Assembly (NCBI GenBank): GCA_947085505.1
Contig: CAMTWI010000004.1
Span: 193,800-257,799 of the forward strand
Length of the DNA: 64,000 bases
Direction: 5' to 3'
From: an uncultured bacterium
GTDB lineage: Bacteria; Patescibacteriota; Minisyncoccia; Phycocordibacterales; Phycocordibacteraceae
Position numbers and translations under genes: made by a program. Below, piece by piece: positions 315-62,912 of this stretch (positions within the stretch are counted from its first letter, which is position 1; every line of letters starts with the position of its first letter). Under the pieces are notes generated by a model. It was not told where the DNA came from and made no database searches. It worked only from the letters and a program-made list of their open reading frames with translations.

Positions 315-340
315 GACTATATTCACATAAATAGTATAGT
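313..340 (+). promoter_or_regulatory. sigma70-type promoter for 363..1244
   Basis: TTGACT 313-318, 16-nt spacer, TATAGT 335-340. AGGAG lies 7 nt before ATG 363. Confidence 0.45.
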
Positions 341-362
341 GAGATTTGAAAGGAGCCTTCTC

Positions 363-1244
363 ATGGCTAAGAAGCGACATAGCGCTTCCCATTGGAAGTG
401 CGACGAAACAGGTCTTTTTATCCTGACGCCGACAGGTCCCGTTGAGGTTTTTATTGACTCCATCTCTCTTGATGAGGTCCATTACTTCTATCTCGGGCGC
501 GATTACATCTACGAGCGTAAATTCGAGTATGCCTGCCGACGATACGAGAACAACCCGGGCACCCCGGGCGAACACTGGCGTGCAGCAATCAAAGACCTCT
601 CACGATCTCTGATGCATGCGTACTTCGCTATGCTCCAACCTGGCTGGGTGCGTAAGCGCCCCTTCATTTGGGTGGATGGCGAAAAAATGCTGTTCCAACG
701 TATCAGCCAACGCTATTTTGCGTTTAGCTGGAACGATGCTCGCTATGCCTTCTTCAGGAATGATGAGGGCGACATCGAGATTAGCGTCTACGACAAGGAC
801 GCACCGGACTTGCCTGAAAGCCTGTGTGCGAGCCTCCTTTGGTTCGCTGTCCGGATATGGCATGCCATTCCGGTTCCTGTACCGCTTCCCCGCTTTGATG
901 CGGAACGGTACAATACCTTCGTGAGTATGGAGAACCCAATGCGTAACCCGAAAAAGCGTCCTGCGCACGTCGAATCGTCTTACCAACGACTGGCGTATGC
1001 TGAACGGAACGGCCATCCGGTCGAAGAGATCGACAAGCATCAAGCCGAACTCCGTCAGCTTGGCAAACGCGGAGCTGAAGCCAAGAAGCAGGCACAACCC
1101 GCTACTGAGACTTCAGCTGAAGCCTTGATTCGGAGAGAGAATCTCATCCGGCAGAACGAGGCCCGTGCTATGGGCCTTGAACGAGGAGATCATCTCCTTC
1201 CGCCGGATGATCGTCCTGACGAATTCCGCGACTTCGCTGCATAA
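363..1244 (+). CDS. hypothetical protein (Trp/aromatic-rich N-domain, charged coiled C-terminal tail)
   Basis: ORF 339..1244 trimmed to ATG 363, which has an AGGAG SD. No family recognised. Confidence 0.55.
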   Translation: MAKKRHSASHWKCDETGLFILTPTGPVEVFIDSISLDEVHYFYLGRDYIYERKFEYACRRYENNPGTPGEHWRAAIKDLSRSLMHAYFAMLQPGWVRKRPFIWVDGEKMLFQRISQRYFAFSWNDARYAFFRNDEGDIEISVYDKDAPDLPESLCASLLWFAVRIWHAIPVPVPLPRFDAERYNTFVSMENPMRNPKKRPAHVESSYQRLAYAERNGHPVEEIDKHQAELRQLGKRGAEAKKQAQPATETSAEALIRRENLIRQNEARAMGLERGDHLLPPDDRPDEFRDFAA

Positions 1245-8645: not shown

Positions 8646-10319
8646 TTATTCGAAATACTCTGGCGCCGTCTGATACAACCGTGTTAGGGCCGTGTGAGTA
8701 GCAAAGATGCCGCCGATCGAATTAGTCGACGGACCCCGCTCCATAACTACAACAAAGGCATACTTTGGTTTATCGTACGGAAAGTATCCTATGGCCCATG
8801 AGTTATAGAACTCGTTATTCACCCCGAGCTGTGCGGTACCTGTCTTGGCTGCAACCTTCACAAAGGAAAGGTCGTTGAGCCCTATTGCGGTTCCCTCGGT
8901 TGTTGTCATGCGCATACCTTCCTGTGCTACACGTATTGCAGCCTGGCTAATTGGGATAGTTTGACCCTGAAGCGGTGCGTCCTTCACCAAGGTTGGCTTA
9001 ACTAGCTTGCCGCCGTTTGCAACCGCTGCAGTGCCGCGGGCTGCCGCAAGAGGTGTTATCTGCATCGCATACTGCCCTATGGCGGTGTTATAGGTGTCAC
9101 CCAGACGCCATGGATCCCCAAACCTTTCTTCTTTCCATGCGGGAGTTGGTACGAAGCCCGTTGCCTCCCCAGAAAGCTCTATACCCGTAGGACTTGTGAA
9201 GCCGAACGCGTCATACCAGTACTTAAGGCGTTCAATACCGAGTCCTTTCACTTCCCTATACCCGCCACCAATGGCATAGAAATACACGTCCGAAGAAACA
9301 GCAACCGCACGCCTGGCATCCACCCGTCCATGCGCCTTCCAGTCCTTAAAGATTGAAGGACGGGACGGGTCGTACGGATTTGGGATGCTAATGGAACCCG
9401 TAGAAACAATACTCCAGTCCGCTGTTACAACACCATCTGAGAGTGCCCCTGCAACCTCCATAGGTTTTATAATCGATCCTGGGGTATAGAGCCCCGACAC
9501 CGCGCGATCAAGATACACCCGTCGTGGGTTTGTCTGATACGACGCGATTACGCTCGATGGGCCGCCGGACGAAAGTACGTTCGGGTCATACTCAGGATAC
9601 GAAACAAGCGCATGTACTTCTCCGGTGTTCACGTCCATAAGAATTGCTGAGCCACCAAGAAATGGGATGCGGTCCGCGAGTTCCTGAATGGAGCTGGCGA
9701 ACGCGCGCTGCGCCCTGGCATCTATTGAGAGCGTTACGGTCTCTCCCTTCTCTGCCGGCTTCACCGTTCCTGAAGACTGAAGAGCGCCGTGTGCATTTTC
9801 CTCAACGAGAAGCGTTCCATTCTCTCCAGAAAGCACGTCATCCATCGCCTCCTCAACACCATTCAATCCTTTAATCACTGTTTCATAGAAATTGCCGGAC
9901 GAATCCCTTTTTGGATATGAGACGTAGCCCAAGAGATGCGAGAAGCCAGGATACTCGTATACGCGACGAACAAATCCATCGTGTCCTTCCTCGTTATAAA
10001 CGAGCGCGTTCCCGTTACGATCAACAATGGCACCCCGCTCTGCAAAAAGGACCTGGGGCCGTAGACGGTTGCGTTCACTTCTCTCTGCATACTCACTTCC
10101 CTGCAATATCTGCAAAGATGCCGCCTGCATCATGAGCGCCATAAACATAAGGATCGCAACAAACCCTATACCAGTGAACGTGGAGGGCTCGATCGGTTTC
10201 TCGAACTTCCCTTCAAGCCGGCTTTGATCGAATCCAGACAGGTTTGATGAATCCAAGAATATCTCGTCTGGATCGAGTTCGTATTTTCGTTTCTTCTTTA
10301 CGCGACGCCCGAGAATCAT
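8646..10319 (-). CDS. mrdA: penicillin-binding protein 2 (elongasome transpeptidase)
   Basis: SxxK (GSIIKPM), SSD and KTGTAQ motifs. Lies immediately downstream of mreBCD. Confidence 0.8.
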   Translation of the reverse strand: MILGRRVKKKRKYELDPDEIFLDSSNLSGFDQSRLEGKFEKPIEPSTFTGIGFVAILMFMALMMQAASLQILQGSEYAERSERNRLRPQVLFAERGAIVDRNGNALVYNEEGHDGFVRRVYEYPGFSHLLGYVSYPKRDSSGNFYETVIKGLNGVEEAMDDVLSGENGTLLVEENAHGALQSSGTVKPAEKGETVTLSIDARAQRAFASSIQELADRIPFLGGSAILMDVNTGEVHALVSYPEYDPNVLSSGGPSSVIASYQTNPRRVYLDRAVSGLYTPGSIIKPMEVAGALSDGVVTADWSIVSTGSISIPNPYDPSRPSIFKDWKAHGRVDARRAVAVSSDVYFYAIGGGYREVKGLGIERLKYWYDAFGFTSPTGIELSGEATGFVPTPAWKEERFGDPWRLGDTYNTAIGQYAMQITPLAAARGTAAVANGGKLVKPTLVKDAPLQGQTIPISQAAIRVAQEGMRMTTTEGTAIGLNDLSFVKVAAKTGTAQLGVNNEFYNSWAIGYFPYDKPKYAFVVVMERGPSTNSIGGIFATHTALTRLYQTAPEYFE

Positions 10320-10588
10320 CCTTCCATGATACGCGTCTTCACGAAGCGATGCACGAGGAGTGAAAGAACGAAAGAAAGTATGCCGAAGAGCGTAAAATAC
10401 GGCACAAACGCTGCTCCAGGCGAGTAGTATACGAGATCAGCTATGAGACCAAACGCGAGCCCAGCTGGCGGCACCATGAGACTTGCTGCAAAGATTGCGA
10501 CAAGCCCCACCTGCCACGGAAATATGAAAAGGGATATGAGTGCAATAAAAGATGTCATGGCGCGAATCATGGAGTAATGGTGATCCAC
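10316..10588 (-). CDS. mreD: MreD-like small polytopic membrane protein
   Basis: 90 aa with about 3 TM segments, located between mreC and mrdA. The call is positional. Confidence 0.5.
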   Translation of the reverse strand: MDHHYSMIRAMTSFIALISLFIFPWQVGLVAIFAASLMVPPAGLAFGLIADLVYYSPGAAFVPYFTLFGILSFVLSLLVHRFVKTRIMEG

Positions 10589-12390: not shown

Positions 12391-13629
12391 CTAACGTGCA
12401 AGCAACTCTTCTCGGGTAAGTTTCGACACGTCACCGGTTGCACGAGTAACAAACTCGAAGGAACCAGTTGCTACTGCCTCCTTGCCCACATTAATGCGGT
12501 ACGGGATGCCGATAAGGTCAGAATCCGCAAACTTCTCTCCCGCGCGTGCGTCCCTATCGTCATAGAGGACCGAAGAATTCTTTTCGAGCGTTTCGTACAG
12601 CTCGTCTGCAAGCTTTAGGACCTCCGGATCGTTTCCAAGGGACACGAGGTGGTAGCGGAATGGCGCAATCGCTTCCGGCCACACAAGACCCTTCTCGTCA
12701 GATAGGGTCTCCGCAATGATACCCATGAGCCTGGTCGGGCCAATGCCGTAGCTTCCCATAACAACGTGCTTCTTCTCGCCGTCCTCTGCCATGTAGGTAA
12801 GACCAAGCGGCTCTGAGAATCGCGTACCAAGGTTAAAGATATTCCCGGCTTCAATTGCCATCTTCTCTACGAGTGCTGACTTCTCAAGACCCAGCTTCTC
12901 AAGCGCTGCATCCGTCATCACTTCCTTGTTAACCGCGATACCCTTTGCCTCGTCCACGTAGATTGTGTCCTCGCCCGCGTCAGACACCGTCTGAAACTCT
13001 TCCGAGAATTCGCTGAAGATGCCGCCTGATGCAAACGTTACGTACGTGCGGTCTCCAACACCCGCTCTTTCAAACACGTTCTTGTACGCTTCCCTCGCCT
13101 TTGCAAAGAATGCTTCGTGCTCGCTCTCGTCCTTAGAGAACGAGTAGAGGTCTTTCATGAGGAATTCCTTTCCACGCATGATGCCGGACTTTGCACGAAG
13201 CTCATTCCTGAACTTGTTCTGGAACTGATACGCATATACCGGAAGATCGCGATACGACGCAATGTGTTCCTTCATGATGCGCGTGATCGGTTCCTCGTGC
13301 GTTATAGCAAGACCAGTCTCGCCACCCGACTTGAATTCAGTCTTGAACCAGATATCAAGTTTCTTCTCGTCCCAGCGATCGGTCTTTATCCAAGGCTCCT
13401 TATCCTGGAGTGCAGTTAGGACCATTTCCTGCCCGCCAATCTTATTCATCTCCTCGCGGATAATCTGGACGATGTTGTTCAGTACTTTGAGCCCAAGCGG
13501 GAGATACGTGTATACGCCCGCAATCTCCTTGTGTACAAATCCAGCACGAATGAGGAGCTGCGCGTTCTTCGCTTCCTCGTCTGAAGGGTTGTCCCTTCGG
13601 GTTCTCGTGAATAGCTGGCTTTGGCGCAT
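12391..13629 (-). CDS. proS: proline--tRNA ligase (short form lacking the bacterial INS domain)
   Basis: QLFTRTRRDNPSDEEAKNAQLLIRAGF and class II motifs. Start trimmed to MRQSQLF. Confidence 0.8.
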   Translation of the reverse strand: MRQSQLFTRTRRDNPSDEEAKNAQLLIRAGFVHKEIAGVYTYLPLGLKVLNNIVQIIREEMNKIGGQEMVLTALQDKEPWIKTDRWDEKKLDIWFKTEFKSGGETGLAITHEEPITRIMKEHIASYRDLPVYAYQFQNKFRNELRAKSGIMRGKEFLMKDLYSFSKDESEHEAFFAKAREAYKNVFERAGVGDRTYVTFASGGIFSEFSEEFQTVSDAGEDTIYVDEAKGIAVNKEVMTDAALEKLGLEKSALVEKMAIEAGNIFNLGTRFSEPLGLTYMAEDGEKKHVVMGSYGIGPTRLMGIIAETLSDEKGLVWPEAIAPFRYHLVSLGNDPEVLKLADELYETLEKNSSVLYDDRDARAGEKFADSDLIGIPYRINVGKEAVATGSFEFVTRATGDVSKLTREELLAR

Positions 13630-13676
13630 AGTCCTTTCAGTATACGGGTCTGTCCCCCACACCGCAAAAGCCGTGT

Positions 13677-15382: not shown

Positions 15383-15937
15383 TTATTGAGATACTTCCGT
15401 TTCCTTCCTCTTAAAGAGCGCCTCGAGTGCTTCGTTTCCCTTGTCGATCTTCTTCTGCACCTCTTCCTTGAAACGTGCGAGCTCGTCTTTGCCCATGCCA
15501 CCCTCCTTCTCAGCAGCATCAAGTGCCTTCAAAGTATCAGTACGATGTCCGCGAAGCGTAATACGCGCGCCCTCGAGTTTCTCGTTCGCAACTTTAAGTA
15601 GCATGGTGCGACGCTCTGCAGTTAGTTCTGGGAACGTAACGCGAAGGCCTTGATCGTCAGAACCGACCCCCACCCCGAGGTTCGCATTCTGAATTGCTGC
15701 CTCAATAATCTTTGTTAAGGACTTATCCCACGGCACGATGCGAAGGGTTCGGGCGTCTTCAATGTTCACGGCCGCAACCTGATTAATCGGTGTGCGCGTC
15801 CCGTATACCTCGGGCTTAATCGTGTCGAGAATTGCCGGGGTTGCGCGCCCAGTGCGGACGCTTGAAAGCTCGCGGACAAGCCACTCCTCAGTCTCCTTAA
15901 TGCTCTGGTCTAAAGTTTTGAAATCAAATGACGCCAT
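15383..15937 (-). CDS. frr: ribosome recycling factor
   Basis: Typical 184-aa RRF sequence (LSSVRTGRATPAILD...). Confidence 0.9.
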   Translation of the reverse strand: MASFDFKTLDQSIKETEEWLVRELSSVRTGRATPAILDTIKPEVYGTRTPINQVAAVNIEDARTLRIVPWDKSLTKIIEAAIQNANLGVGVGSDDQGLRVTFPELTAERRTMLLKVANEKLEGARITLRGHRTDTLKALDAAEKEGGMGKDELARFKEEVQKKIDKGNEALEALFKRKETEVSQ

Positions 15938-15952
15938 ATACGGCCTAGTGTA

Positions 15953-16651
15953 TCACTTCCAGAGATTCTCGGGCATAACGATGAGAATGTGCTCGAAGAT
16001 GAGCTTTAGAGGGGCGGAACTTGTGTGGAGTATTGGCATGAATGTATTGAGGTCTCGCAGGAACACAATGAGGTTTTCGGCTTCCTCGCCTTTTGCTTTC
16101 AACAACGTTAGGTGCGTAACACGTATTAAACCCTCGACAATACGGACCGCTTCCATGCGAGCCGCCTGCTTGTCCTCGTCTTTGTTGTCAGACTTCACGC
16201 GACTAACCAGCTTTGCAACCATCTTCTCGCGCTCAGTACGTGTACTACTCAGGAAAATACGTGCGGTCTCGTCTATCTCTCCTTTTGCGCGAGGAAGCTC
16301 GATGAGTCTTGAGCGGAGTGTCGGCAACAACATTCCTTCGGCCGGAACAACAAGAATGAGTGTTGTTCCCTCGCTTGGCTCTTCAAAAAGCTTGAGTAGC
16401 GCGTTCTGTGCCGGGGGAAAGAGCCTCCCTGCTGCGATAACGATGAGCTTCTTGTCGCCCTCAACAGGAGCCTGAGATGCGAATGTGATTATCCTGCGTG
16501 CGTGATCAATTGGAAACAGGCCTTCGTATGAAAAGATCGCAAGATCTGGGTGGCCTGTGCCTGCAATATCGAGCTTTTCTTCAGCGAATGCTCTAGCGGC
16601 AAGGATACCGGCCTTGGGTGCTCCAATATAGAGATACGCATGATGCGCCAT
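15953..16651 (-). CDS. holB: DNA polymerase III delta' subunit-like (HolB)
   Basis: HAYLYIG ... QNALLKLFEEPSEGTTLILV ... LPTLRSR. The 387-aa ORF is trimmed to ATG 16651. The upstream part overlaps a + strand gene and looks non-coding. Confidence 0.7.
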   Translation of the reverse strand: MAHHAYLYIGAPKAGILAARAFAEEKLDIAGTGHPDLAIFSYEGLFPIDHARRIITFASQAPVEGDKKLIVIAAGRLFPPAQNALLKLFEEPSEGTTLILVVPAEGMLLPTLRSRLIELPRAKGEIDETARIFLSSTRTEREKMVAKLVSRVKSDNKDEDKQAARMEAVRIVEGLIRVTHLTLLKAKGEEAENLIVFLRDLNTFMPILHTSSAPLKLIFEHILIVMPENLWK

Positions 16652-16706
16652 AAAGGCATTGTATCCTGGTGCTACACTTTCTCCATAGGAGTAACCTCTC
16701 AAGGAT

Positions 16707-17165
16707 ATGAACAGGAACGTAGTCGTAGGCATCGTCGTGGTACTCGCGCTCGCTGTTGTGGGTTGGTGGTACTTGGCCATGATGGTGCCTGTGCAGACAT
16801 TGCCGCAGGAAATGTCACCAGAAGGTACGGGAGCTAAAGTCTCAACAGTCCAGACCTCCATGGATCTCTCGGGTACGTGGCGAAGCAAACAGGATGCACG
16901 CTTCGTTCGTGTCTTCGCTGTCGATGGCACTATCACTGACCGATACGAAGGAGACGACAGCGCAACGGTTACCGGTACCTGGAACGTTGTTGAGGATCTC
17001 GCACGCGAGCGGCCCGAGCTCGTCGTTAACGGGAACGTGCAGGTCATCAGGGTACAGTTCGCTGAAGAGATGCTGTATTTCGCAATAGCAGCGCTTACGG
17101 AAACTGATCTCTCCATGATCTACCTCTCAGGCAACGGTTCGTTAGAATTCGAGCGAGTAAATTAA
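16707..17165 (+). CDS. membrane-anchored hypothetical protein
   Basis: N-terminal TM segment (VVVGIVVVLALAVVGWWYLAMM) followed by a beta-rich domain. Its own terminator follows. Confidence 0.6.
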   Translation: MNRNVVVGIVVVLALAVVGWWYLAMMVPVQTLPQEMSPEGTGAKVSTVQTSMDLSGTWRSKQDARFVRVFAVDGTITDRYEGDDSATVTGTWNVVEDLARERPELVVNGNVQVIRVQFAEEMLYFAIAALTETDLSMIYLSGNGSLEFERVN

Positions 17166-17214: not shown

Positions 17215-17242
17215 TTGACAAAATCAATATTTAGTCTATACT
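17215..17242 (+). promoter_or_regulatory. near-consensus sigma70 promoter for 17301..17963
   Basis: TTGACA 17215-17220, 16-nt spacer, TATACT 17237-17242. GGAGGA lies 7 nt before ATG 17301. Confidence 0.6.
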
Positions 17243-17300
17243 GTTTATCAGTCTGTGCGGTGCGTTCAGCCGCTAAACCCTATTTCTGGAGGATCCGCTG

Positions 17301-17963
17301 ATGCGCAATCGCGCTTTTGCCCTTTTCGCTTCTATCATCACCATGGCCGCTACGCCTGCGTTCGCGCAGGAAGCCAGCGGTCCGAGCTTCGAAGTCGGCG
17401 GCGGTGTGGCCTCGGGGTTCTTGTATCCCGACCAAGCCACTGTCTTCTCCGAGCGGACGACCGCTACGTTCGATGCCACCGTCTGTTCGGGCGGCTGGTG
17501 CGGCACCATCTGGACCGCCCAGACTGGAGAGTCGGAAACCAGCGAGACCGATCTGATCGTCTCGCGCGAATTCGACACCGGCCCGGTGACCATCCGTCTC
17601 CAAGGCGGCTACTACCTGGTCGCCGGCGAGGACATCTGGTCCGGCATCACTTCGGCGACGCTGCCCGTGTCCGACTCGCTGTCAATCACGGCCTCCTACG
17701 AGGTCATGGGCGGCGGATACGAAACCAACGTCGCGAAGCTCGCGGGCAACTACGAGCATTCGTTCACGGACCGGGTCGTTGGCGACATTGAAGTGGCGAT
17801 CAGCCACGACACGTCGATTGACGCCCAGGTGTGGAGCTACGAAGTCGGCGTTTCCTACGCCCTGACGGAGGAGCTTACGGTCCGCGGCTACGCGCAGGGC
17901 TTCGAGAGTCAAGTCGGCGACGGCTACATCGTCGGCGTCGACGTTCGTCGGCGGTGGCCATAG
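17301..17963 (+). CDS. secreted beta-barrel-like protein resembling proteobacterial outer-membrane proteins; GC-rich, compositionally foreign
   Basis: Signal peptide MRNRAFALFASIITMAATPAFAQE. Alternating aromatic/Gly beta-strand pattern. GC3-rich codons, unlike the neighbouring genes. Confidence 0.6.
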   Translation: MRNRAFALFASIITMAATPAFAQEASGPSFEVGGGVASGFLYPDQATVFSERTTATFDATVCSGGWCGTIWTAQTGESETSETDLIVSREFDTGPVTIRLQGGYYLVAGEDIWSGITSATLPVSDSLSITASYEVMGGGYETNVAKLAGNYEHSFTDRVVGDIEVAISHDTSIDAQVWSYEVGVSYALTEELTVRGYAQGFESQVGDGYIVGVDVRRRWP

Positions 17964-18018: not shown

Positions 18019-19029
18019 CTACTTCTTCGAAATGATGCTCTTCTTATAGGTATCCAAATGTTTCAGCGCGATGCCTGTTCCTCGTACCACGCAGAAGTAC
18101 GCGTCGTCTGCGAGCTTCGCCTGCACCCCAGTGCGGCGATACACAAGTTCTGGGAAGTGTCGCAGCTGACTGGTGCCTCCCGTAAGGATGATGCCGTTGT
18201 CGATAATGTCGGATGCAAGTTCCGGTGGCGTGTCCTGGAGCACTTTTCTGACCGCATTCATCATCTCACGCAGTTCCCTGTTCATGGCTTGCACAACCTC
18301 ATTTGTCTTAAGTTCAATAGTACGTGGAAGTCCCGAAAGAAGATCGCGTCCTTTCACAAGCATTGAGAGCTCCTCTGTAACAGGAACCGCTGACCCGATT
18401 TGTATCTTTATTTCTTCTGCTGTTTTGTCTCCTATTGAAAGGTTGTACTGCTTCTTTACATAGTCGATGATCGCGCGGTCGAGTTTGTTGCCTGCTACCT
18501 TCACCGAAGTCGATGCAACAATCCCACCAAGCGAGATCACCGCCACGTCGATAGTACCGCCACCGATATCTGCAACCATACGACCGAGCGCTTCTTGAAT
18601 CGGGATGCCCGCACCAATGGCTGCGAGAATCGGTTCCTTCACGACGTACGCGTCAGACGCACCCGCTTTCACCGCGGCTTCGATAACCGCACGCTTCTCT
18701 GTTGACGTTACTCCTGCCGGTACTGAGATGAGTACGGTTGGCTTGAAGAAACTCCGACCCACCGCCTTCTTTATAAAATAACGAAGCATGGCTTCCGTTA
18801 CCCGGTAATCGGCAATAACACCATCTTTCATTGGACGATACGCAGTTATGGAATCTGGGGTCCTTCCAATCATCGCCTTAGCCTCTGAGCCTATAGCGAG
18901 CACTTTGTTGTTCTCGGTTGAGACCGCAACAACCGACGGCTCGTTCAGGACGACTCCTTTACCTGGTACGAACACCAGGACATTCGTGGTACCAAGGTCG
19001 ATTCCTATGCGTGGAGAGAAAAGCGGCAT
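18019..19029 (-). CDS. second MreB/actin-like paralog
   Basis: RIGIDLGTTNVLVFV and DIGGGTIDVAV. Start set to MPLFSPRIGIDLG (ATG 19029), which has TATGAT 7 nt upstream. Confidence 0.8.
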   Translation of the reverse strand: MPLFSPRIGIDLGTTNVLVFVPGKGVVLNEPSVVAVSTENNKVLAIGSEAKAMIGRTPDSITAYRPMKDGVIADYRVTEAMLRYFIKKAVGRSFFKPTVLISVPAGVTSTEKRAVIEAAVKAGASDAYVVKEPILAAIGAGIPIQEALGRMVADIGGGTIDVAVISLGGIVASTSVKVAGNKLDRAIIDYVKKQYNLSIGDKTAEEIKIQIGSAVPVTEELSMLVKGRDLLSGLPRTIELKTNEVVQAMNRELREMMNAVRKVLQDTPPELASDIIDNGIILTGGTSQLRHFPELVYRRTGVQAKLADDAYFCVVRGTGIALKHLDTYKKSIISKK

Positions 19030-19105
19030 GGCCAGTATCATACCGCGTCTTAGCCTAGCCACGCAAAAGCACGATTCTGGTTACATATGCCAAGCGATAG
19101 TGGAC

Positions 19106-19114
19106 TGCTACAAT
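19106..19114 (+). promoter_or_regulatory. extended -10 (TGcTACAAT) 7 nt before murA ATG
   Basis: Read directly from the sequence. No SD lies between the box and ATG 19122. Confidence 0.5.
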
Positions 19115-19121
19115 ACGCACC

Positions 19122-20432
19122 ATGTCCAAAGCCGAAGAGAATAACTTTATCGTTGAGGGCGGCCACCCGCTTTCTGGATCAATTACTACCAACTGCTCGA
19201 AGAATGGTGCCGTTGCAATGCTCGCCGCGTCCTTACTTAACAAAGGAACCACGACGCTCCGAAGGGTTCCAAAGATCGAGGAGGTGCACCGCTTAATTGA
19301 GGTGCTCCGCTCTATCGGTGTATCGATTGAATGGAAAGACAAGGATGTGGTTATTACCCCGCCAGAAACAATTTCTCTTGAGACAATCGACACGGCTGCG
19401 GCGGTGCGCACCCGCTCGATCCTCATGTTTATCGGATCCTTGGTGCATCTCTTCCCTACCTTCTCCATTCCACAATCGGGCGGTTGCACACTAGGTCTCC
19501 GTTCAGTACGTTCGCATCTCTGGGCACTCGAGAAGTTCGGCATCAACATTGAGACACTCTCAGACTCGTATCAGGTTACGCACGATGGACTCTCACCCGC
19601 TGAAGTGGTGCTCTACGAATCAAGCGATACCGCAACCATTAATGCGCTCTTAGCGGCAGCGAAAATTAGCGGCACGAGCGTGATTAAGTACGCATCCGCA
19701 AACTACCAGGTACAGGAAGTCTGCGGATTCTTACGAGAGCTCGGCGTAACAATCGAAGGTCTCGGAACAACAACACTCACTGTTACTGGAACTACTGAGA
19801 TCCAGAAGGATATTTCCTACGCTATTGGCGAGGATCCTATCGATGCCATGTTCTTCATTGCGGCAGCGGCAACGACTCGTTCCCTCCTTACTATTAGGAA
19901 CGCTCCTATTGAGTTTCTTGAGGTTGAGCTCGAAGTGCTGGCTAAGATGGGTCTCGTCTTCTCTATATCGAACCATTCGCTCTCAGAGAACGGCATCACG
20001 AAACTCGCCGACATTCATCTAGAGCCTTCGGACCTCATCGCGTTCCCGGAGAAGATCCATGCCCGCCCGTATCCAGGACTCAACATCGACAACCTTCCTT
20101 TCTTTGCGGTTATAGCAACGAGAGCTGAAGGCGAAACCCTCATCCATGATTGGGTCTACGAAAAGCGCGCCATTTACTACACTGAACTTGATCGGTTAGG
20201 CGCTGACACCGTCTTAATGGATCCGCATCGTATCCAAATTCGCGGACCGGTTCATTTGCGCGGTGCTGAAATTGTAGCCCCACCAGCACTTCGCCCCGCT
20301 ACCATTCTTCTTATTGGTATGCTTGCTGCAAAAGGCACTTCAACGCTTCGCAATATCTATAGCATCAACCGAGGGTACGAAGATCTCGTGAATCGTCTTA
20401 CGTCTATTGGCGCGAACATAAAGCACGCCTAA
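19122..20432 (+). CDS. murA: UDP-N-acetylglucosamine 1-carboxyvinyltransferase MurA
   Basis: EPSP-synthase/MurA fold sequence. Active-site loop PQSGGCTLGLRSV contains the Cys. Confidence 0.85.
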   Translation: MSKAEENNFIVEGGHPLSGSITTNCSKNGAVAMLAASLLNKGTTTLRRVPKIEEVHRLIEVLRSIGVSIEWKDKDVVITPPETISLETIDTAAAVRTRSILMFIGSLVHLFPTFSIPQSGGCTLGLRSVRSHLWALEKFGINIETLSDSYQVTHDGLSPAEVVLYESSDTATINALLAAAKISGTSVIKYASANYQVQEVCGFLRELGVTIEGLGTTTLTVTGTTEIQKDISYAIGEDPIDAMFFIAAAATTRSLLTIRNAPIEFLEVELEVLAKMGLVFSISNHSLSENGITKLADIHLEPSDLIAFPEKIHARPYPGLNIDNLPFFAVIATRAEGETLIHDWVYEKRAIYYTELDRLGADTVLMDPHRIQIRGPVHLRGAEIVAPPALRPATILLIGMLAAKGTSTLRNIYSINRGYEDLVNRLTSIGANIKHA

Positions 20433-20773: not shown

Positions 20774-20981
20774 GTTCCAGCACGGGTATGATCTGCAGAA
20801 GCAGTAGTGCAGGAATCTGGCCCCAGGGTGGGCCGACGCCGCCAGTTGACGCCGAGTTAGCCGTTAAGGAATCAGGGGGACAGCTTTCACCACCTAGAAA
20901 CCTGATGTGCCTTCGAGCTGTTAATTGGCGGCGTCTCACCCGCTCTTTATACGCACCAGCCTCCCGGGCCGGTGTTTTTTT
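20774..20981 (+). ncRNA. candidate structured ncRNA of unknown class (about 200 nt)
   Basis: Possible promoter TTGACC 20739-20744 / TATCGT 20762-20767. Long-range helix 20826-20843 pairs with 20927-20941 (gggtg..gacgccgcc / ggcggcgtc.caccc). Terminator 20954-20981 carries a T7 run. No ORF. Confidence 0.4.
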
Positions 20982-20989
20982 GTTATAGT
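20981..20989 (+). promoter_or_regulatory. extended -10 (TGtTATAGT) 6 nt before def ATG
   Basis: Read directly. It lies immediately after the upstream terminator. Confidence 0.5.
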
Positions 20990-20995
20990 CCTTTT

Positions 20996-21526
20996 ATGTC
21001 CATAATCCTTCAGGATGGAGAGCCAGTGCTCCGCAAGATTTCAGCTCCCGTACCCGAGGAGCTCTTTGGGACGCCTGAACTGAAAACAATCATCGACGAC
21101 ATGGCCGCTACACTCAACGAGCAGCTCGATGGTGTTGCGCTCGCTGCTCCCCAGATCGGTATTCCCTACCGTATATTCATCGTCCGCTACGACCGCACCG
21201 TAGCCCCAACCCCTGAAGGCGAAGAAGACCATGCCGCTGATCTTGGTGTCTATATAAATCCTGTATTTGTGAAGAGCTCGCGTCGCCGGCTCGAGATGGA
21301 TGAGGGTTGTTTGTCAGTGCGTGGCATTTATGGAAAAACCATGCGCAACGAGCGCGCAACGGTACGTGCTCGTGACGCTGAAGGTGTTTCGTTTGAACGC
21401 GGTGGTGGAGGACTCTTGGCACAGATATTTCAGCATGAAACAGATCACTTAAACGGCATCCTATTTGTTGATCACGCAACCGACCTTATCGAAGTGAACA
21501 AAGAACACCATGGACAGGTTACCTAA
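20996..21526 (+). CDS. def: peptide deformylase
   Basis: EGCLS and QHETDHLNG motifs. Start set to MSIILQDGEPVLRK. Confidence 0.9.
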   Translation: MSIILQDGEPVLRKISAPVPEELFGTPELKTIIDDMAATLNEQLDGVALAAPQIGIPYRIFIVRYDRTVAPTPEGEEDHAADLGVYINPVFVKSSRRRLEMDEGCLSVRGIYGKTMRNERATVRARDAEGVSFERGGGGLLAQIFQHETDHLNGILFVDHATDLIEVNKEHHGQVT

Positions 21527-23246: not shown

Positions 23247-23332
23247 TATTTAGAGACTGACGCAAATATAACTCACTACTACCATTACAGAATATCTGTG
23301 GTATTGTCCATGACGGTAAAAGGAGGTACCCG

Positions 23333-23473
23333 ATGCCCAATCAGTACTGCGAATGCGGTAATCGGATACGGGTCTTTATTCGGGGTCGTGGTTGGACCGG
23401 TGCGCCGGATGACGATCATGATCAGTGCACCAAGTGCTATGTATCGCTTCGCGATTCTATGCGCTGCTCGTAA
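23333..23473 (+). CDS. 46-aa zinc-ribbon-like peptide (MPNQYCECGNRIRVFIRGRGWTGAPDDDHDQCTKCYVSLRDSMRCS)
   Basis: AGGAGG 23321-23326 lies 6 nt before the ATG. CxC...CxxC pattern. A hairpin follows at about 23488-23512. Below the 60-aa ORF-track cutoff. Confidence 0.45.
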   Translation: MPNQYCECGNRIRVFIRGRGWTGAPDDDHDQCTKCYVSLRDSMRCS

Positions 23474-23620: not shown

Positions 23621-23629
23621 TGACATAAT
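23621..23629 (+). promoter_or_regulatory. extended -10 (TGaCATAAT) 7 nt before ATG 23637
   Basis: Read directly. Confidence 0.45.
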
Positions 23630-26674: not shown

Positions 26675-26683
26675 TGCTACGAT
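26675..26683 (+). promoter_or_regulatory. extended -10 (TGcTACGAT) 6 nt before ATG 26690
   Basis: Read directly. Confidence 0.45.
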
Positions 26684-26689
26684 ATATGC

Positions 26690-26884
26690 ATGAGCAAACA
26701 AACCTTCTACTACGTTGTATCAGGAGTCTTCTTTCTCGTAGCATTTGCACACCTTATGCGTGCTGTGTACGGATGGGAGGCGGTTATTGGTGGCGTCGCT
26801 ATACCAATCTCGTTTAGCTGGGGTGCGGTCGTACTCGCCGGGTATCTTGGCTATCGAAGCTACTCGTTCGGCAAGAAGCTGTAA
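26690..26884 (+). CDS. small 2-TM membrane protein (64 aa)
   Basis: Two hydrophobic helices. Leaderless-type promoter. Confidence 0.55.
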   Translation: MSKQTFYYVVSGVFFLVAFAHLMRAVYGWEAVIGGVAIPISFSWGAVVLAGYLGYRSYSFGKKL

Positions 26885-27158: not shown

Positions 27159-27167
27159 TGTTAATCT
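27159..27167 (+). promoter_or_regulatory. extended -10 (TGtTAATCT) 6 nt before ATG 27174
   Basis: Read directly. Confidence 0.4.
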
Positions 27168-33653: not shown

Positions 33654-33682
33654 TTGAAAATACGGCCTAGGTACAGTATTAT
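33654..33682 (+). promoter_or_regulatory. promoter ending 6 nt before ATG 33689
   Basis: TTGAAA 33654-33659, 17-nt spacer, TATTAT 33677-33682. Confidence 0.5.
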
Positions 33683-41650: not shown

Positions 41651-42590
41651 TTTTCTCGATCAAATTCACAAACACTTCCTCGAGTCTGCTTCCCGAGTTC
41701 CGGATATTTGAGATCTGTATCCCGATCTTGGTCATAAGACGGACAGCATCATTCACAACGTCGCCAGGCTTGAGCGACAACTCAAGCGTGGTCTCGTCGA
41801 TACTCTTTATTGAAAGGTCCCGCATGAGCGCTAATTGCGCTGGTGTAACCGGTTCAACAGTATCGAGAACAAGCGTTACGTAACTCAGTTTCGAGACCAG
41901 CTCCTTTACACTTCCCTGTTCGATAATCTGGCCCTTGTTCACAATTGCGATGCGACTACAGAGTTGCTCTGCCTCCTCAAGGTAGTGGGTGGTGAGGACG
42001 ATGGTCGTGCCCGCTTCGTTCAGTTTCCGCAGGTATTCCCACATCCCACGACGGAGCTCCACGTCCACTCCCGCCGTTGGCTCGTCAAGAAGGAGGATCT
42101 TCGGCTCGTGGATGAGTGCGCGTGCAATGAGAAGCCGGCGCTTCATACCACCTGAAAGCTTTTGCGATTGCGTATCTTTCTTGTCCCAAAGACCCAGCTC
42201 TTTAAGCACCTCTTCCGCTCGTGGAAGGGCTGCACTGCGTGGAATACCGTAGTATCCCGCTTGGTTGAGAACGATGTTGAACGGCGTTTCGAATATATCG
42301 AAGTTCACCTCCTGCGGCACAAGTCCGATATGCTTCTTCGCATTCACCGGGTCACTATCAATAGCAGAACCCATGACCTCAACAGTGCCTGAGGTCTTCA
42401 CCACGAGACCCGCGGTTATACCAATAAGACTTGTCTTGCCCGCGCCATTCGGGCCAAGGAGTCCAAAGAATTCTCCTTTCTTAATCTCGAGCGAAACTCC
42501 TTTCAGTGCTTCGGTTCCGGGCTGCTTTGTATCTTTTGCGTATACCTTTTTGAGGTCCTTGATTGAAAGCGCAGATACCAAATCTTCCAT
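41643..42590 (-). CDS. ABC transporter ATP-binding protein
   Basis: Walker A GPNGAGKTS, signature LSGGMKRR and Walker B ILLLDEPT. Start trimmed to MEDLVSALSIKDL. Confidence 0.9.
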   Translation of the reverse strand: MEDLVSALSIKDLKKVYAKDTKQPGTEALKGVSLEIKKGEFFGLLGPNGAGKTSLIGITAGLVVKTSGTVEVMGSAIDSDPVNAKKHIGLVPQEVNFDIFETPFNIVLNQAGYYGIPRSAALPRAEEVLKELGLWDKKDTQSQKLSGGMKRRLLIARALIHEPKILLLDEPTAGVDVELRRGMWEYLRKLNEAGTTIVLTTHYLEEAEQLCSRIAIVNKGQIIEQGSVKELVSKLSYVTLVLDTVEPVTPAQLALMRDLSIKSIDETTLELSLKPGDVVNDAVRLMTKIGIQISNIRNSGSRLEEVFVNLIEKNA

Positions 42591-42637
42591 AATAGAGTCA
42601 GTATACCACTGACCGTTTTCCGGGCTATGATGGGGAC

Positions 42638-43784: not shown

Positions 43785-43881
43785 GCGTATCTCGAATAAT
43801 TTCGGCATTCACCACTGGCGTCCTACTTATGATTCAGGAAATCAACACAGGAATGATGGGTGGCGCGCTATACTTCTCATA

Positions 43882-45612: not shown

Positions 45613-46152
45613 CTACAGGTGATGCTGAATCCACATCGCTACAAACAGATTGTAGGAACCGTGCAGGATCAGTATGGCGCAGATACCCTTGAGTGGCGTC
45701 CTACCGTACGAACCCCAGAGCAGAAACACAAAGGCAATAACGACGCCAATGAGTCCCTGGATAAACACGTTTCCTATACCTCCGTGAACAAATCCGAACA
45801 CGAAGGACGTGAGCACTACCAGCACGAGCGCGGCAGCAAGCGGTGGGGTTGTTTTCCAGAAAATCCCCCATACACCCCACAGTAACCCGAACGGTACCAC
45901 GCGATAGAGGAATTCTTCTCGCAGCGGCGTGATAACAAACGAGCGTAGGGCTATGTCATGAACCCCTCTGGCGTGAAGCTCGAGCGCGTAGTTGCGCGTT
46001 CTGCTCGAGATGGATAGCTCTGGGGCGAGCCATACCACAAAGTCTCTTCCGTAGGCTGCAAGGTTCCAGCAAAAGAACACGAGCACCGGAAGAGAGCAGA
46101 GAAACAGCCAGAATGGTGCGCCGGCCAAAAGCCGGTTTCGTATCCTTTGCAT
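45613..46152 (-). CDS. CPBP (CAAX) family intramembrane glutamic protease
   Basis: REEFLYRVVPFGLL (EExxxR) and FGFVHG motifs. GGAGGAG SD. Confidence 0.75.
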   Translation of the reverse strand: MQRIRNRLLAGAPFWLFLCSLPVLVFFCWNLAAYGRDFVVWLAPELSISSRTRNYALELHARGVHDIALRSFVITPLREEFLYRVVPFGLLWGVWGIFWKTTPPLAAALVLVVLTSFVFGFVHGGIGNVFIQGLIGVVIAFVFLLWGSYGRTPLKGICAILILHGSYNLFVAMWIQHHL

Positions 46153-46308
46153 TGTCTCCTCCGAAAGTTGCTGTACTTGTTCTACTGTATCACTTGATCT
46201 TGAGCTGCCAAATCTGTGCCTAGCTTGCTTAGCATTCGTCTATGCGCACCCAAGCATCTTGTTGTGTACACGCATCAAACTCTCTAACGACACATGTAGC
46301 GTCGTGCA

Positions 46309-46317
46309 TGGTAAATT
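46309..46317 (+). promoter_or_regulatory. extended -10 (TGgTAAATT) 6 nt before ATG 46324
   Basis: Read directly. Confidence 0.45.
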
Positions 46318-46323
46318 ACGTGC

Positions 46324-47022
46324 ATGAACGAAGAACAGTTCAAGGCGCACGAAGCCTTGGTTAAGGAATTGAACGATCCAGCGTTACGCGCGGAGTATGC
46401 GCGCACCTATGACAACTACAAGCCAGGTATTGTTGCGCGGCTCCTCGGCTATCTTCTCGTTGGTTCAGGAACGCTCGTATACGGAAAGAAGCCTTCCTAT
46501 TCAAAGTTCAAGGCCATTGAGGTTATCGCCCGCATCCCCTACCAGTCCTGGGAGGTTGCAACATATACCCTCCTTACGGGGCTTTACTCAAACGAGAAGC
46601 GCGCTATTGAACTTACGAAGACCAGCACCTTTTCCAGAGAGGCACAGGACAACGAGACCCTGCATGTCGTTGTATTGGCGCAGATCTGCAAACGCCTTAA
46701 GTGTGACGGCTTCTTCCGCCATTTCCTTATCCCAATCCTATTTGCGTTCTTCTACTTCTGGACCATCTACATTCTCTACATGCTCTCTCGCCGTTCTGCG
46801 CTCGAACTTAATTACATCTTCGAGAATCATGCATACCATCAGTACCAGCAGTTCCTAGTTGAAGATGGAGAGCGCCTTAGAGACACGCCAGTGTATTCAG
46901 AGTTTCTTACATTCTACGGACGCAATCCGCGCAACGAATATGAGCTTTTCGAGCTGATTAGAAACGATGAGTTGGTGCACCGAAATCGTTCGATACGGGA
47001 GCTGCAGGCGAAGAAGGGATAA
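46324..47022 (+). CDS. alternative oxidase (AOX/PTOX)-like membrane di-iron carboxylate protein
   Basis: The four motifs appear in the canonical AOX order: AIEVIARIPY (E), EAQDNETLH (ExxH), FENHAYH (E) and NDELVHRN (ExxH). There are also hydrophobic membrane-associating segments. Confidence 0.6.
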   Translation: MNEEQFKAHEALVKELNDPALRAEYARTYDNYKPGIVARLLGYLLVGSGTLVYGKKPSYSKFKAIEVIARIPYQSWEVATYTLLTGLYSNEKRAIELTKTSTFSREAQDNETLHVVVLAQICKRLKCDGFFRHFLIPILFAFFYFWTIYILYMLSRRSALELNYIFENHAYHQYQQFLVEDGERLRDTPVYSEFLTFYGRNPRNEYELFELIRNDELVHRNRSIRELQAKKG

Positions 47023-48476: not shown

Positions 48477-48929
48477 TTAGTCTTTCTTGTGTGTCACGTC
48501 TATCTTCTTGTCCTCCGCGTTCCAGCCAACCAAGTTTGAAAACACCTGGAAGAATGATGCGAGGGCCGCAATGGCAAGTATGAGCACGAGCGGCATGATG
48601 ACCTGAGGACTCGCACTGTATCCGACATATGCGAGGAATGCGAACCAAACACCCGTGCACCATGGGCATCCAAGCAAATCCTTAATGGTCCCAAGGAAGG
48701 TTCCCTCACGTGCGGAAGAGACCGCATCGCGCAGGAACTCGGTTATGTGGTCATACGTAAAGAGACGCACGAGACGGAACGTTGCAAGCGAGAGCAGAAT
48801 CAGGTCTGTCCATGGAATAGAGGTGGTAAGAAGGCCACGACCTGAGAGATAGATATAACTAAGTGCAACTAACCCGAGGAAGAACAGAGAGAAGATGATA
48901 TTCCAGAGTGCTTTCATACGGGCGAGCAT
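48477..48929 (-). CDS. DUF1360-like membrane protein
   Basis: TFRLVRLFTYDHITEFLR and CPWCTGVW motifs as I recall them for DUF1360. 4 TM helices. Confidence 0.55.
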   Translation of the reverse strand: MLARMKALWNIIFSLFFLGLVALSYIYLSGRGLLTTSIPWTDLILLSLATFRLVRLFTYDHITEFLRDAVSSAREGTFLGTIKDLLGCPWCTGVWFAFLAYVGYSASPQVIMPLVLILAIAALASFFQVFSNLVGWNAEDKKIDVTHKKD

Positions 48930-48979
48930 ACCATACGAGAAACGCCGCTCAGAGAGCGGCGTTTCTACAAAGACTGGCG

Positions 48980-49294: not shown

Positions 49295-49323
49295 AGGATT
49301 AACAATATACCACATACCTTAAT

Positions 49324-50893: not shown

Positions 50894-50921
50894 TTGCAAA
50901 TAGGGCGTTTTCTGGTATAGT
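50894..50921 (+). promoter_or_regulatory. sigma70-type promoter for small ORF 50950
   Basis: TTGCAA 50894-50899, 16-nt spacer, TATAGT 50916-50921. Confidence 0.5.
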
Positions 50922-50949
50922 TCATACAGACGCAACAAGGAGTGAATCG

Positions 50950-51123
50950 ATGTTTCGTGTAGCTTCATGGCCGCTTAGGTTTCAGGAGGTCTGGCAAATC
51001 TCCCTTTCGAAGCCTGTAGCGGTTCAGAAGACGTTCCTTTACCAACGTCTTCTCCATCGAGTGTCCTTCGTACGCTCAGGCGAGGGACAAGAGCTCAAAC
51101 CCATTGCGTGGGCGCAACCCTGA
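50950..51123 (+). CDS. 57-aa hypothetical protein (MFRVASWPLRFQEVWQISLSKPVAVQKTFLYQRLLHRVSFVRSGEGQELKPIAWAQP)
   Basis: AAGGAG 50937-50942 lies 7 nt before the ATG. Its own terminator follows. Below the ORF-track cutoff. Confidence 0.4.
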   Translation: MFRVASWPLRFQEVWQISLSKPVAVQKTFLYQRLLHRVSFVRSGEGQELKPIAWAQP

Positions 51124-51136
51124 GCTTGAACAAAGA

Positions 51137-51167
51137 CCCTGCCGGCATCCGTGTCGGCAGGGCTTTT
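51137..51167 (+). terminator. hairpin terminator
   Basis: ccctgccggc-atccgt-gtcggcaggg-c-tttt. Confidence 0.75.
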
Positions 51168-51171
51168 CATT

Positions 51172-51180
51172 TGCTAGAAT
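51172..51180 (+). promoter_or_regulatory. extended -10 (TGcTAGAAT) 6 nt before hisS ATG
   Basis: Read directly. It lies between the terminator and ATG 51187. Confidence 0.5.
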
Positions 51181-53438: not shown

Positions 53439-53442
53439 CCCG

Positions 53443-53470
53443 CCGCCCTGCACATCCGTGTGCAGGGCGG
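53443..53470 (+). terminator. hairpin terminator
   Basis: ccgccctgcaca-tccg-tgtgcagggcgg. Confidence 0.65.
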
Positions 53471-53493
53471 CAATTCTTTACCCTTTTCCTGCA

Positions 53494-53502
53494 TGCTATG
53501 AT
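53494..53502 (+). promoter_or_regulatory. extended -10 (TGcTATGAT) 6 nt before ATG 53509
   Basis: Read directly. Confidence 0.5.
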
Positions 53503-57334: not shown

Positions 57335-57456
57335 ACCCCTAGTGTACCTGATACAGGCAACAGGGTCCCCAGAAGGGGTATACTAGTCCTGTCCCGAAGG
57401 ATGGCACCTTAGAGAAGCTTGATGCCGGGCGGTAGGTGAAACGGAAAGGAGGTCTC

Positions 57457-57588
57457 GTGATAGAGCAGAGGATCAGATGCATGCATACTGCTTCAGTGAC
57501 CACGAGACGATGTAGTCGGGCATATGGCCTGTTGGACCGGGACCCATCGGAAAACCCCCGAAAACGTAACCACCAAAACTGCTCGTGA
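57457..57588 (+). CDS. possible 43-aa Arg/Cys-containing peptide, or part of an sRNA
   Basis: AGGAGG 57447-57452 lies 4 nt before GTG 57457. The stop sits inside the terminator stem. TATACT at 57379-57384 is a possible promoter. Very uncertain. Confidence 0.2.
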   Translation: MIEQRIRCMHTASVTTRRCSRAYGLLDRDPSENPRKRNHQNCS

Positions 57589-57612
57589 CCTCAGGTCGCG
57601 AGCAGACTTTTT
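57575..57612. terminator. bidirectional terminator (12-bp stem)
   Basis: aaaa-ctgctcgtgacc-tca-ggtcgcgagcag-ac-ttttt. Confidence 0.8.
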
Positions 57613-58440: not shown

Positions 58441-58547
58441 GTCAGAAAGTATACCTTTCTGACTGGTCTTCTTACAAAGAGGGGTCGTCATTAGTCTGGG
58501 TTAGAAATGGAGCTACAGGGCTCAGATATGCTAGGCTAATTCTATAC

Positions 58548-62882: not shown

Positions 62883-62912
62883 AGGGGTATGTACGAACTG
62901 GTAATGAGAAAA

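Follow-up and report, generated by a model that had tools for sequence, protein, structure and literature searches.

The murA region and gene starts of the same kind

The stretch of DNA considered here, hereafter the window, comprises 64,000 nucleotides (nt) of an uncultured bacterium of the Patescibacteriota (order Phycocordibacterales; GenBank assembly GCA_947085505.1, contig CAMTWI010000004.1, positions 193,800 to 257,799), and the element under study is a hexamer resembling the -10 box of a bacterial promoter, found a few nt before the ATG of many genes. The genome has a GC content of 52% and, judged from the 674,607-bp contig of a relative, is streamlined to roughly 0.7 Mb. The original prediction had listed 16 gene starts at which such a hexamer ends 5-7 nt before the start codon, and had proposed that the corresponding mRNAs are leaderless. 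On re-reading the sequence, all 16 pairs of hexamer and ATG coordinates proved exact. The spacer is counted as the nt that separate the hexamer's last T from the A of the ATG. It measures 6 nt at 10 of the listed starts, 7 nt at five and 5 nt at one, and a TGn extension precedes the hexamer in eight of the 16. Of the hexamers, 14 fit TANNNT, and the other two, CATAAT (start 23637) and TACATA (rpoD, start 62882), are poor -10 boxes. The sites that the following sections deal with first are these, "box" standing for the hexamer with its TGn extension, where present:

19029-19124, both strands: divergent region (92 bp) between the mreB paralogue and murA, with both predicted -10 boxes inside
19106-19114, plus strand: murA, box TGcTACAAT, 7-nt spacer, ATG at 19122
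19037-19066, minus strand: mreB paralogue, -35-like TTGCGT (19061-19066), 18 bp, TATGAT (19037-19042), 7-nt spacer, ATG at 19029
16658-16663, minus strand: holB, box TACAAT, 6-nt spacer, ATG at 16651
20981-20989, plus strand: def, box TGtTATAGT, 6-nt spacer, ATG at 20996; hairpin and T-run (20954-20980) directly 5'
42626-42631, plus strand: gtrA-family gene, box TATGAT, 6-nt spacer, ATG at 42638
43869-43874, plus strand: FAD-linked oxidase gene, box TATACT, 7-nt spacer, ATG at 43882
46309-46317, plus strand: AOX-family gene, box TGgTAAATT, 6-nt spacer, ATG at 46324
51172-51180, plus strand: hisS, box TGcTAGAAT, 6-nt spacer, ATG at 51187; preceded by a terminator hairpin (51137-51162) and T-run
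53494-53502, plus strand: gene of a DsbA-like thioredoxin-fold protein, box TGcTATGAT, 6-nt spacer, ATG at 53509; preceded by a terminator hairpin (53442-53471)
57341-57346, minus strand: gene of a UvrD/PcrA-type helicase, box TACACT, 6-nt spacer, ATG at 57334

Positional enrichment at gene starts

Genes in the window were called by codon usage, giving 66 genes for the test described below and 69 curated gene models. The start of each gene was taken to be the 5'-most ATG of its open frame. The first-ATG test is free of circularity because the motif plays no part in choosing starts. Since the total count of the pattern in the window is not enriched, its co-localisation with gene starts was used as the test instead. 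Specifically, TANNNT at a spacer of 6-7 nt precedes 55 of the 2042 ATGs of the window, and 12 of these 55 are the first ATG of a gene, against 1.8 expected for 66 genes (hypergeometric P=7e-8). Widening the spacer to 5-7 nt again gives 12 of the 66 first-ATG starts, against 1.9 expected (binomial P=4e-7). The control pattern TANNNT-N15-ATG occurs 16 times in the window and 21.8 times in shuffles.

The same code was applied to related and unrelated DNA. A MurA search of a species-representative genome collection returned 457 relatives, and the best 80 of the 457 (70-95% identity, 1.28 Mb) were used; these 80 are metagenome-assembled genomes titled Patescibacteria, Candidatus Paceibacterota, Parcubacteria (including C7867-004 and C7867-001), Kaiserbacteria or Minisyncoccia. 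Homologues of the MurA protein were, among the 120 matches listed, only close relatives with at least 75% identity. A HisS search of metagenome contigs added 25 further relatives (52-79% identity), and the HisS scan also supplied an outgroup of 55 unrelated metagenomic loci (about 30% HisS identity). Among 1413 first ATGs of the 80 genome loci (open reading frames, ORFs, of at least 150 amino acids, aa), counted over syntenic orthologues that are not independent of one another, TANNNT is found 179 times at spacer 6, 110 times at spacer 7, 54 times at spacer 8 and 83 times at spacer 9, over a background of about 15 per position. The hisS relatives have 40 at spacer 6 and 16 at spacer 7 among 222 first ATGs. 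In all three sets, the window, the 80 genome loci and the 25 metagenome loci, the spacer histogram has its maximum at 6-7 nt. No peak is seen in the outgroup (8 at spacer 6 and 4 at spacer 7, n=635) or in 50 kb of Escherichia coli K-12 matched to the window in G+C, where a box at spacer 6-7 precedes one of 63 starts.

The peak is specific for ATG, as none appears for GTG, TTG, CTG or ATT at the same ORF positions, and it survives the exclusion of hexamers beginning with TAA or TAG (133 and 112, against about 12). A 50-kb segment of plasmid P3 of Deinococcus deserti, a species known to be rich in leaderless mRNAs, has 4 box-type and 23 Shine-Dalgarno (SD) starts among 39 annotated ones and no peak under the first-ATG rule; a GC-rich stretch of plasmid makes a poor positive control, and the signal of the window is stronger than that of this segment.

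When the 69 curated models are sorted, about 18 genes have a box at spacer 5-7 and about 5 at spacer 8-12. About 8 have a promoter-like box 20-50 nt upstream together with an SD-like motif, and about 6 a distant box without such a motif, while 13 genes overlap the upstream gene or lie at most 15 nt behind it.

Verification of the start codons

The proposed starts agree with two lines of evidence from the proteins. In alignments to profile hidden Markov models (HMMs), residue 7 of MurA falls on profile position 2, residue 4 of Def on position 5, residue 11 of HisS on position 2, residue 3 of MreB on position 4, residue 1 of ProS on position 1 and residue 16 of RRF on position 7; the product of the gtrA-family gene reaches position 1 of GtrA_DPMS_TM at its residue 10. 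Similarity among relatives begins at the proposed methionine, with MPLFSPRIGIDL in MreB, MAHHAY in HolB and M-x-D-K/R-Q-P-L-S-T-E-P-Y in HisS, the conserved N-terminus of the mreB paralogue being M-x-x-FSP-R/K-x-GIDL. Moreover, public and independent gene calls on the 674,607-bp contig, which belongs to a 90%-identical relative (L163), give proteins of the same lengths as those proposed here, namely 436 aa for MurA, 336 for MreB, 176 for Def, 231 for HolB, 412 for ProS, 184 for RRF and 557 for PBP2, and 10 of the 27 publicly called starts of that contig have a box at spacer 5-9. Judged by the profile HMMs and the independent calls, the proposed start codons are correct.

A competing reading of holB was rejected. 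A 387-aa ORF (15953-17116, minus strand) extends the gene 155 codons upstream, and this ORF is spurious: the extension contains no domain, several relatives have in-frame stops just upstream of the MAHHAY start, and the opposite strand carries a better-conserved ORF over the same DNA (16707-17165). The HolB homologue itself (DNA polymerase III delta', 15956-16651, minus strand) is short, with 232 aa, and family profiles align to it only from about position 56-63, so that it appears to lack the usual N-terminal part or to have a diverged one.

Conservation and position in the transcription unit

Beyond the genes already listed, the following sites emerged as candidates:

48917-48965, minus strand: DUF1360 gene, terminator hairpin (48939-48965), box TGgTATGCT, 7-nt spacer, ATG at 48917
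13627-13644, minus strand: proS, box TATACT, 9-nt spacer, ATG at 13629; predicted leader of 2-3 nt
15935-15955, minus strand: frr, box TGaTACACT, 9-nt spacer, ATG at 15937
42588-42608, minus strand: gene of 315 aa, divergent partner of the gtrA-family gene, box TGgTATACT, 9-nt spacer, ATG at 42590; predicted to be near-leaderless
10316-10331, minus strand: mrdA (PBP2), box TATCAT, 6-nt spacer, ATG at 10319; the box lies inside an upstream 90-aa ORF, with an ATGA overlap

Orthologues were scored for TANNNT at spacer 5-10 unless a spacer is given. The box of murA is kept in all 80 relatives, TGn-extended in 56 of them, and that of hisS in 24 of 25, down to 52% protein identity. It is likewise retained at proS (45 of 47 relatives, spacers 5-9), the DsbA-like gene (9 of 9, spacer 6), frr (46/53), the mreB paralogue at 19029 (mreB-2, 68/79), holB (52/63), def (54/68) and the DUF1360 gene (5 of 7). 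Smaller sets of relatives agree: the AOX-family gene (4/4, as TGnTAGATT at spacer 6), the helicase gene (4/4), the FAD oxidase gene (3/3), the gtrA-family gene (3/3, spacer 6) and its divergent partner (3/3, spacer 8-9). Upstream of the proposed methionine, only the hexamer is conserved in the orthologue alignments, and its flanks diverge. At the mrdA site, T-A-N-N-N-T stands at exactly 6 nt in 28 of 28 relatives, including a conserved T at a wobble position.

Genes that follow closely behind another mostly have no box, as for fmt (1 of 68 relatives), mreB-1 (1/76) and rseP (6/38). The original prediction had proposed scoring the occupancy of gene starts against that of genes internal to operons, and this comparison bore it out: the -10 hexamer is strongly enriched at gene starts and absent or rare at operon-internal genes. 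In a clade sample made up of the window and the loci L001-L080 and L083-L107 (about 1.5 Mb, crude gene calls), 38% of non-coupled genes have a box, against 18% of those within 10 nt of an upstream gene on the same strand; the outgroup frequency under the same crude calls is 8-10%. The residual 18% is partly accounted for by promoters that lie within the 3' end of the gene before, as at frr and mrdA.

Several sites of the window invite a remark of their own. Two MreB paralogues are encoded, both on the minus strand: the one at 12388 belongs to the mreBCD-mrdA cluster and lacks a box, and the one at 19029 is a standalone gene with its own leaderless-type promoter, divergent from murA. The stop codon TGA of holB (15953-15955) doubles as the TGn of the extended -10 of frr, TGATACACT, an extreme intergenic compaction. 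In three relatives (L085, L086, L107) the orthologue of the FAD-linked oxidase gene starts with a GTG that occupies the same place and follows TATACT by 7 nt; the clade may thus have some leaderless mRNAs initiated at GUG, though the genome-wide peak is ATG-specific. The AOX-family protein (46324-47022, plus strand) matches the alternative-oxidase di-iron family of Pfam with E=5.8e-9 and is 84-89% identical in four relatives, an unexpected oxygen-related function for a genome of the candidate phyla radiation (CPR).

Anatomy of the motif

Anchored on the hexamer, 436 sites give the consensus TA[T/C]A[A/C]T, the commonest hexamers being TACAAT, TATGAT, TATACT, TATAGT and TAGAAT. At -14, 60% of the sites have G, and at -15, 41% have T, where the background frequency is 25%; a weak TTGC can be discerned at -35 to -32, with an information content of 0.05-0.12 bit. 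Overall, the motif is that of a sigma-70 extended -10, TGnTAYAAT, with a weak -35. The -35 is visibly conserved upstream of the mreB paralogue (TTGAGC/TTGCGT, TTTTG/TTGAGC in relatives, 16-18 bp from the box) and is also clear at 33654, 17215 and 33597. A pyrimidine occupies position -1, next to the ATG, at 71% of boxed starts, compared with 56% of unboxed ones (P=3e-6), and G is depleted there. At spacers of 8 and 9 nt, A is enriched at the seventh nt after the box (56% and 50%), as would be expected if transcription began at a purine about 7 nt past the -10.

The same TGnTAnnnT is found 25-36 nt upstream of some other starts, and an SD-like motif is present in the leaders of those at 363, 23333, 46152 and 50950. 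The original prediction had also placed several of the boxes directly after the terminator of the preceding unit, and this is indeed so at hisS (51137-51162), the DsbA-like gene (53442-53471), the DUF1360 gene (48939-48965) and probably def (20954-20974). Where a box directly follows an intrinsic terminator, there is no upstream transcript to provide a leader. Taken together, the TGn extension, the weak -35, the restriction to ATG, the pyrimidine at -1 and the A at the seventh nt point to a promoter and not to a ribosome-binding site. The window itself encodes a housekeeping sigma-70 factor, the one expected to read these promoters:

61599-62882, minus strand: rpoD, housekeeping sigma-70 factor; NCBIfam RpoD, E=4.5e-129 (PRK09210); C-terminal model TIGR02393 covering residues 188-427

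Shine-Dalgarno motifs and downstream genes

SD 4-mers at positions -16 to -5 accompany 12% of non-coupled and 9% of coupled starts of the clade sample, while a control position gives 8-11%. The identical code finds them at 35% and 47% of the respective starts in the outgroup and at 35% and 62% in E. coli. GGAGG at spacer 5-8 precedes 18 of 1411 clade starts, against about 7 expected. The original prediction had described SD-led and leaderless starts as coexisting modes. In the window, a strong SD of GGAGG or AGGAG type is present at only three solid genes (starts 363, 17301 and 46152), with about one expected, so that the coexistence is weakly supported; the remaining SD-led starts that had been cited belong to small ORFs of uncertain reality, which match no family and show no conservation in the relatives' loci. 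SD use in the clade is at background, so the picture of two coexisting modes understates the case. A 16S rRNA 3' end is present neither in the window nor in any of the 164 loci.

Regarding the genes downstream of a first gene, same-strand gaps peak at -4 (31 cases), -1 (16), +2 (29) and +3 (25) nt. The only enriched words found upstream of unboxed genes are the stop codons that end the gene before them. SD motifs at background, tight gaps and stop-codon words together give the regime the look of leaderless first genes combined with termination-reinitiation.

A proposed leaderless arrangement and its alternatives

It is very probable, from the sequence evidence, that sigma-70 -10 boxes in this window are set to produce leaderless or near-leaderless mRNAs, that the genes downstream in each unit are coupled to the first, and that the trait extends across the clade. 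The hexamers would be the -10 elements of promoters read by RpoD, mostly of the extended type and with a weak -35. RNA polymerase would initiate about 7 nt downstream of the box, that is, at the A of the ATG, and spacers of 8-12 nt would lead to initiation 2-6 nt before it. The 5' end of the mRNA would then be the AUG, or nearly so, with no room for an SD, and translation would follow the leaderless pathway, in which ribosome and initiator tRNA bind a 5'-terminal AUG. Downstream genes of a unit, which have neither box nor SD and are separated by gaps of -4 to +7 nt, would probably be translated by termination-reinitiation coupling. The arrangement would be a property of the whole sampled clade (Paceibacteria/Parcubacteria of the 'Kaiserbacteria' type) and not of the window alone. 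The leaderless interpretation put forward in the original prediction is supported by the enrichment at starts, by the rarity of the box at operon-internal genes, by the lack of signal in the controls and by retention in more than 100 related genomes.

A different reading would take the hexamer as a non-SD, AT-rich ribosome-binding or unstructured signal on leadered mRNAs, as in the 'group B' of Bacteroidetes type. With SD motifs nearly absent, the clade needs some other initiation signal, and the distance from motif to ATG resembles that of a ribosome-binding site; such a signal should nonetheless serve internal genes too, from which the motif is largely missing, and it would explain neither the TGn and the weak -35 at promoter spacing nor the restriction to ATG and the pyrimidine at -1. 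Boxes often sit directly behind intrinsic terminators, which would end upstream transcripts, and the same motif recurs 25-36 nt upstream of leadered genes. We hold this reading to be very unlikely. Even less credit is given to an artefact of start choice or ORF definition, by which ATGs had been picked to suit the pattern or in-frame TAA and TAG stops mimic the hexamer. It is true that the pattern had helped to choose starts in the original prediction, that spacers 6 and 9 are in frame with the ATG, that the in-frame positions 0, 12 and 18 are slightly raised and that the raw count does not exceed shuffles. The unbiased first-ATG rule still yields P=7e-8, though; spacer 7, which is out of frame, is strongly enriched as well, the peak outlasts the removal of TAA/TAG hexamers and is missing from control genomes processed by the same code, and the starts are confirmed by independent gene calls and profile HMMs.

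The promoters might also be real and their transcripts carry leaders of 1-6 nt, giving short-leadered mRNAs with a related but possibly distinct mechanism of translation. Spacers of 8-10 nt are indeed common in relatives at mreB, frr and proS, and the A at the seventh nt for spacers 8-9 suits such leaders. Spacers 6 and 7 dominate, however, and there the seventh or eighth nt is the A of the ATG, preceded by a pyrimidine. As a general account this reading appears unlikely, and it is a refinement of the leaderless explanation and not a true alternative to it.

Several points weigh against the leaderless explanation. The original prediction had suggested a comparison with shuffled sequence, and only the co-localisation with gene starts is enriched; the raw count is not raised, TANNNT-N6-ATG occurring 25 times in the window against 21.5+/-4.4 in dinucleotide shuffles and TANNNT-N7-ATG 30 times against 22.6+/-5.1. 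A strict two-hexamer scan for TTGACA/TATAAT is not enriched over shuffles either, so that the identity of the promoters rests on the extended -10. About 18 window genes fall outside all the classes given above. Because the related loci are syntenic orthologues, independent events are fewer than the large counts suggest. The boxes of two originally cited examples, 23637 and rpoD, are poor, and that of mrdA is ambiguous, as it could be an internal promoter or could reflect a coding constraint or translational coupling. Spacers of 8-12 nt are frequent in relatives at mreB (14 at 8 nt, 19 at 9 nt and 4 at 10 nt) and similarly at frr and proS, and part of these genes would have short leaders. Positional enrichment, a promoter-type motif, its conservation and the absence of SD motifs are direct observations; the transcription start site and the mode of translation we infer, the former by way of spacing rules established in other bacteria.

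Other features of the window

The remaining sites cited in the original prediction, three genes with a leader and an ORF opposite the holB promoter are given here:

23621-23629, plus strand: hypothetical 'surface protein' gene, TGaCATAAT, 7-nt spacer, ATG at 23637; imperfect -10, a weak example
26675-26683, plus strand: 64-aa ORF, box TGcTACGAT, 6-nt spacer, ATG at 26690; one orthologue, box kept
27159-27167, plus strand: 125-aa ORF, box TGtTAATCT, 6-nt spacer, ATG at 27174; box kept in one of two orthologues
33654-33682, plus strand: 100-aa ORF, TTGAAA-17-TATTAT, 6-nt spacer, ATG at 33689; 10 of 12 consensus matches
58448-58453, minus strand: 96-aa membrane ORF, box TATACT, 7-nt spacer, ATG at 58440; no orthologue found in relatives
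62888-62893, minus strand: rpoD start, TACATA, ATG at 62882; without the invariant final T and 30 nt behind the upstream gene, the weakest example
335-363, plus strand: gene with leader, TATAGT (335-340), leader of about 15 nt, AGGAG (351-355), ATG at 363
46152-46192, minus strand: CAAX-protease family gene with leader, TGaTACAGT (46184-46192), GGAGGAG, ATG at 46152
17215-17301, plus strand: gene with leader, TTGACA-16-TATACT (17215-17242; 11 of 12 consensus matches), GGAGG (17288-17292), ATG at 17301
16707-17165, plus strand: 152-aa ORF with an N-terminal hydrophobic segment, conserved in 13 relatives; TGcTACACT 28 nt before the start

The 'surface protein' at 23637 has no match in Pfam or NCBIfam and no orthologue in the relatives' loci, and the single orthologue of rpoD has no box. 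In relatives, the version of the 186-aa gene downstream of the 96-aa membrane ORF has its own box at spacer 6.

Divergent gene pairs can be very close to one another, with only 55 bp (16652-16706), 47 bp (42591-42637) or 29 bp (49295-49323) between them. With gaps this short, the paired promoters must overlap back to back. Between holB and the 152-aa ORF, the -10 boxes (16658-16663, minus strand, and 16673-16678, plus strand) are 9 bp apart.

Three short units (50913-51170, 57440-57605 and 23299-23470) consist of a TGnTAnnnT promoter, a strong AGGAGG-type motif and an ORF of 43-57 aa, the first two being closed by a strong terminator. Their ORFs match no family and show no conservation in the relatives' loci, Rfam matches are likewise absent, and the units could encode small proteins or unrecognised RNAs. 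The Rfam scans, run both with the gathering threshold and with E<=1, yielded two tRNAs and nothing else. The segment 24001-28000 has a lower G+C (0.46, against about 0.52). Large hypothetical 'surface' proteins are encoded there, along with several small ORFs that match no family; the segment may be a horizontal acquisition, yet its promoter-to-ATG arrangement is unchanged.

Relation to known systems and significance

The architecture as such is already known in other phyla, and it is the lineage that is new. In the 'group C' of GeneMarkS-2 (Lomsadze et al. 2018, PMC6028130), which covers 90% of Actinobacteria and 97% of Deinococcus-Thermus, a Pribnow box is found about 6-8 nt ('about 10 nt') before genes that are first in operon. 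As in group C, the clade studied here has a -10 box 6-7 nt before operon-first genes and none at internal genes, and the share is comparable, with about 38-45% of non-coupled genes here and a predicted 25-50% of operons there. The two differ in the remaining genes, which in group C are modelled with an SD ribosome-binding site, whereas SD motifs here are at background. Patescibacteria and the CPR are not mentioned in the main text of that paper (PMC6028130).

Leaderless transcriptomes have been mapped in Mycobacterium tuberculosis, M. smegmatis, Corynebacterium glutamicum, Streptomyces coelicolor and Deinococcus deserti (cited in PMC6028130). With these the clade shares a TANNNT directly upstream of the start, the absence (here predicted) of a 5' untranslated region and many housekeeping genes among those concerned. 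The mapped systems rest on differential RNA sequencing (dRNA-seq) and proteogenomics, while the clade is known from sequence only; moreover, their genomes are GC-rich and use AUG or GUG starts, whereas here the GC content is 52% and GUG-initiated cases appear rare. The combination of leaderless first genes, coupled downstream genes and a dispensable SD resembles the haloarchaeal and archaeal 'group D'. A TATA box about 26 nt upstream serves there and a bacterial -10 here, so that the likeness is an analogy and not a shared family. Unlike 'group B', in which the motif is present at both first and internal genes, the motif here is nearly absent at the latter.

In the same superphylum subgroup, an anti-SD motif CCTCCT was detected in 48% of Parcubacteria 16S rRNAs, and the mechanism of initiation was left open (Tsurumaki et al. 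2022, PMC9297842). Both that report and the present analysis point to SD-independent initiation in part of this subgroup, the former from the rRNA side and the latter from the mRNA side. Full-text literature searches combining leaderless or Shine-Dalgarno with CPR lineage names found no description of the arrangement, in agreement with the statement of the original prediction that it is uncharacterised for the lineage.

If the leaderless arrangement is confirmed, several consequences would follow. It would offer an mRNA-side explanation for the report that about half of Parcubacteria 16S rRNAs lack an anti-SD. Programs that rely on SD motifs to call genes can misplace starts or call spurious long ORFs, such as the 387-aa ORF that runs over the holB promoter and masks a real gene on the opposite strand, and a rule linking the -10 to the ATG gives precise starts and operon boundaries in CPR genomes, for which metagenomes are nearly the sole source. 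The DNA between genes would shrink to about 25-50 nt that hold a terminator, a -10 box and the ATG. For organisms with a reduced ribosome, the arrangement suggests a route of initiation through leaderless mRNAs and coupling. The chances seem even that the clade, with more than 450 species-level genomes possessing a closely related murA, runs almost entirely without SD-directed initiation, much as an archaeon does and with a reduced ribosome. In other words, a very large uncultivated clade with reduced ribosomes would be working essentially without SD-directed initiation.

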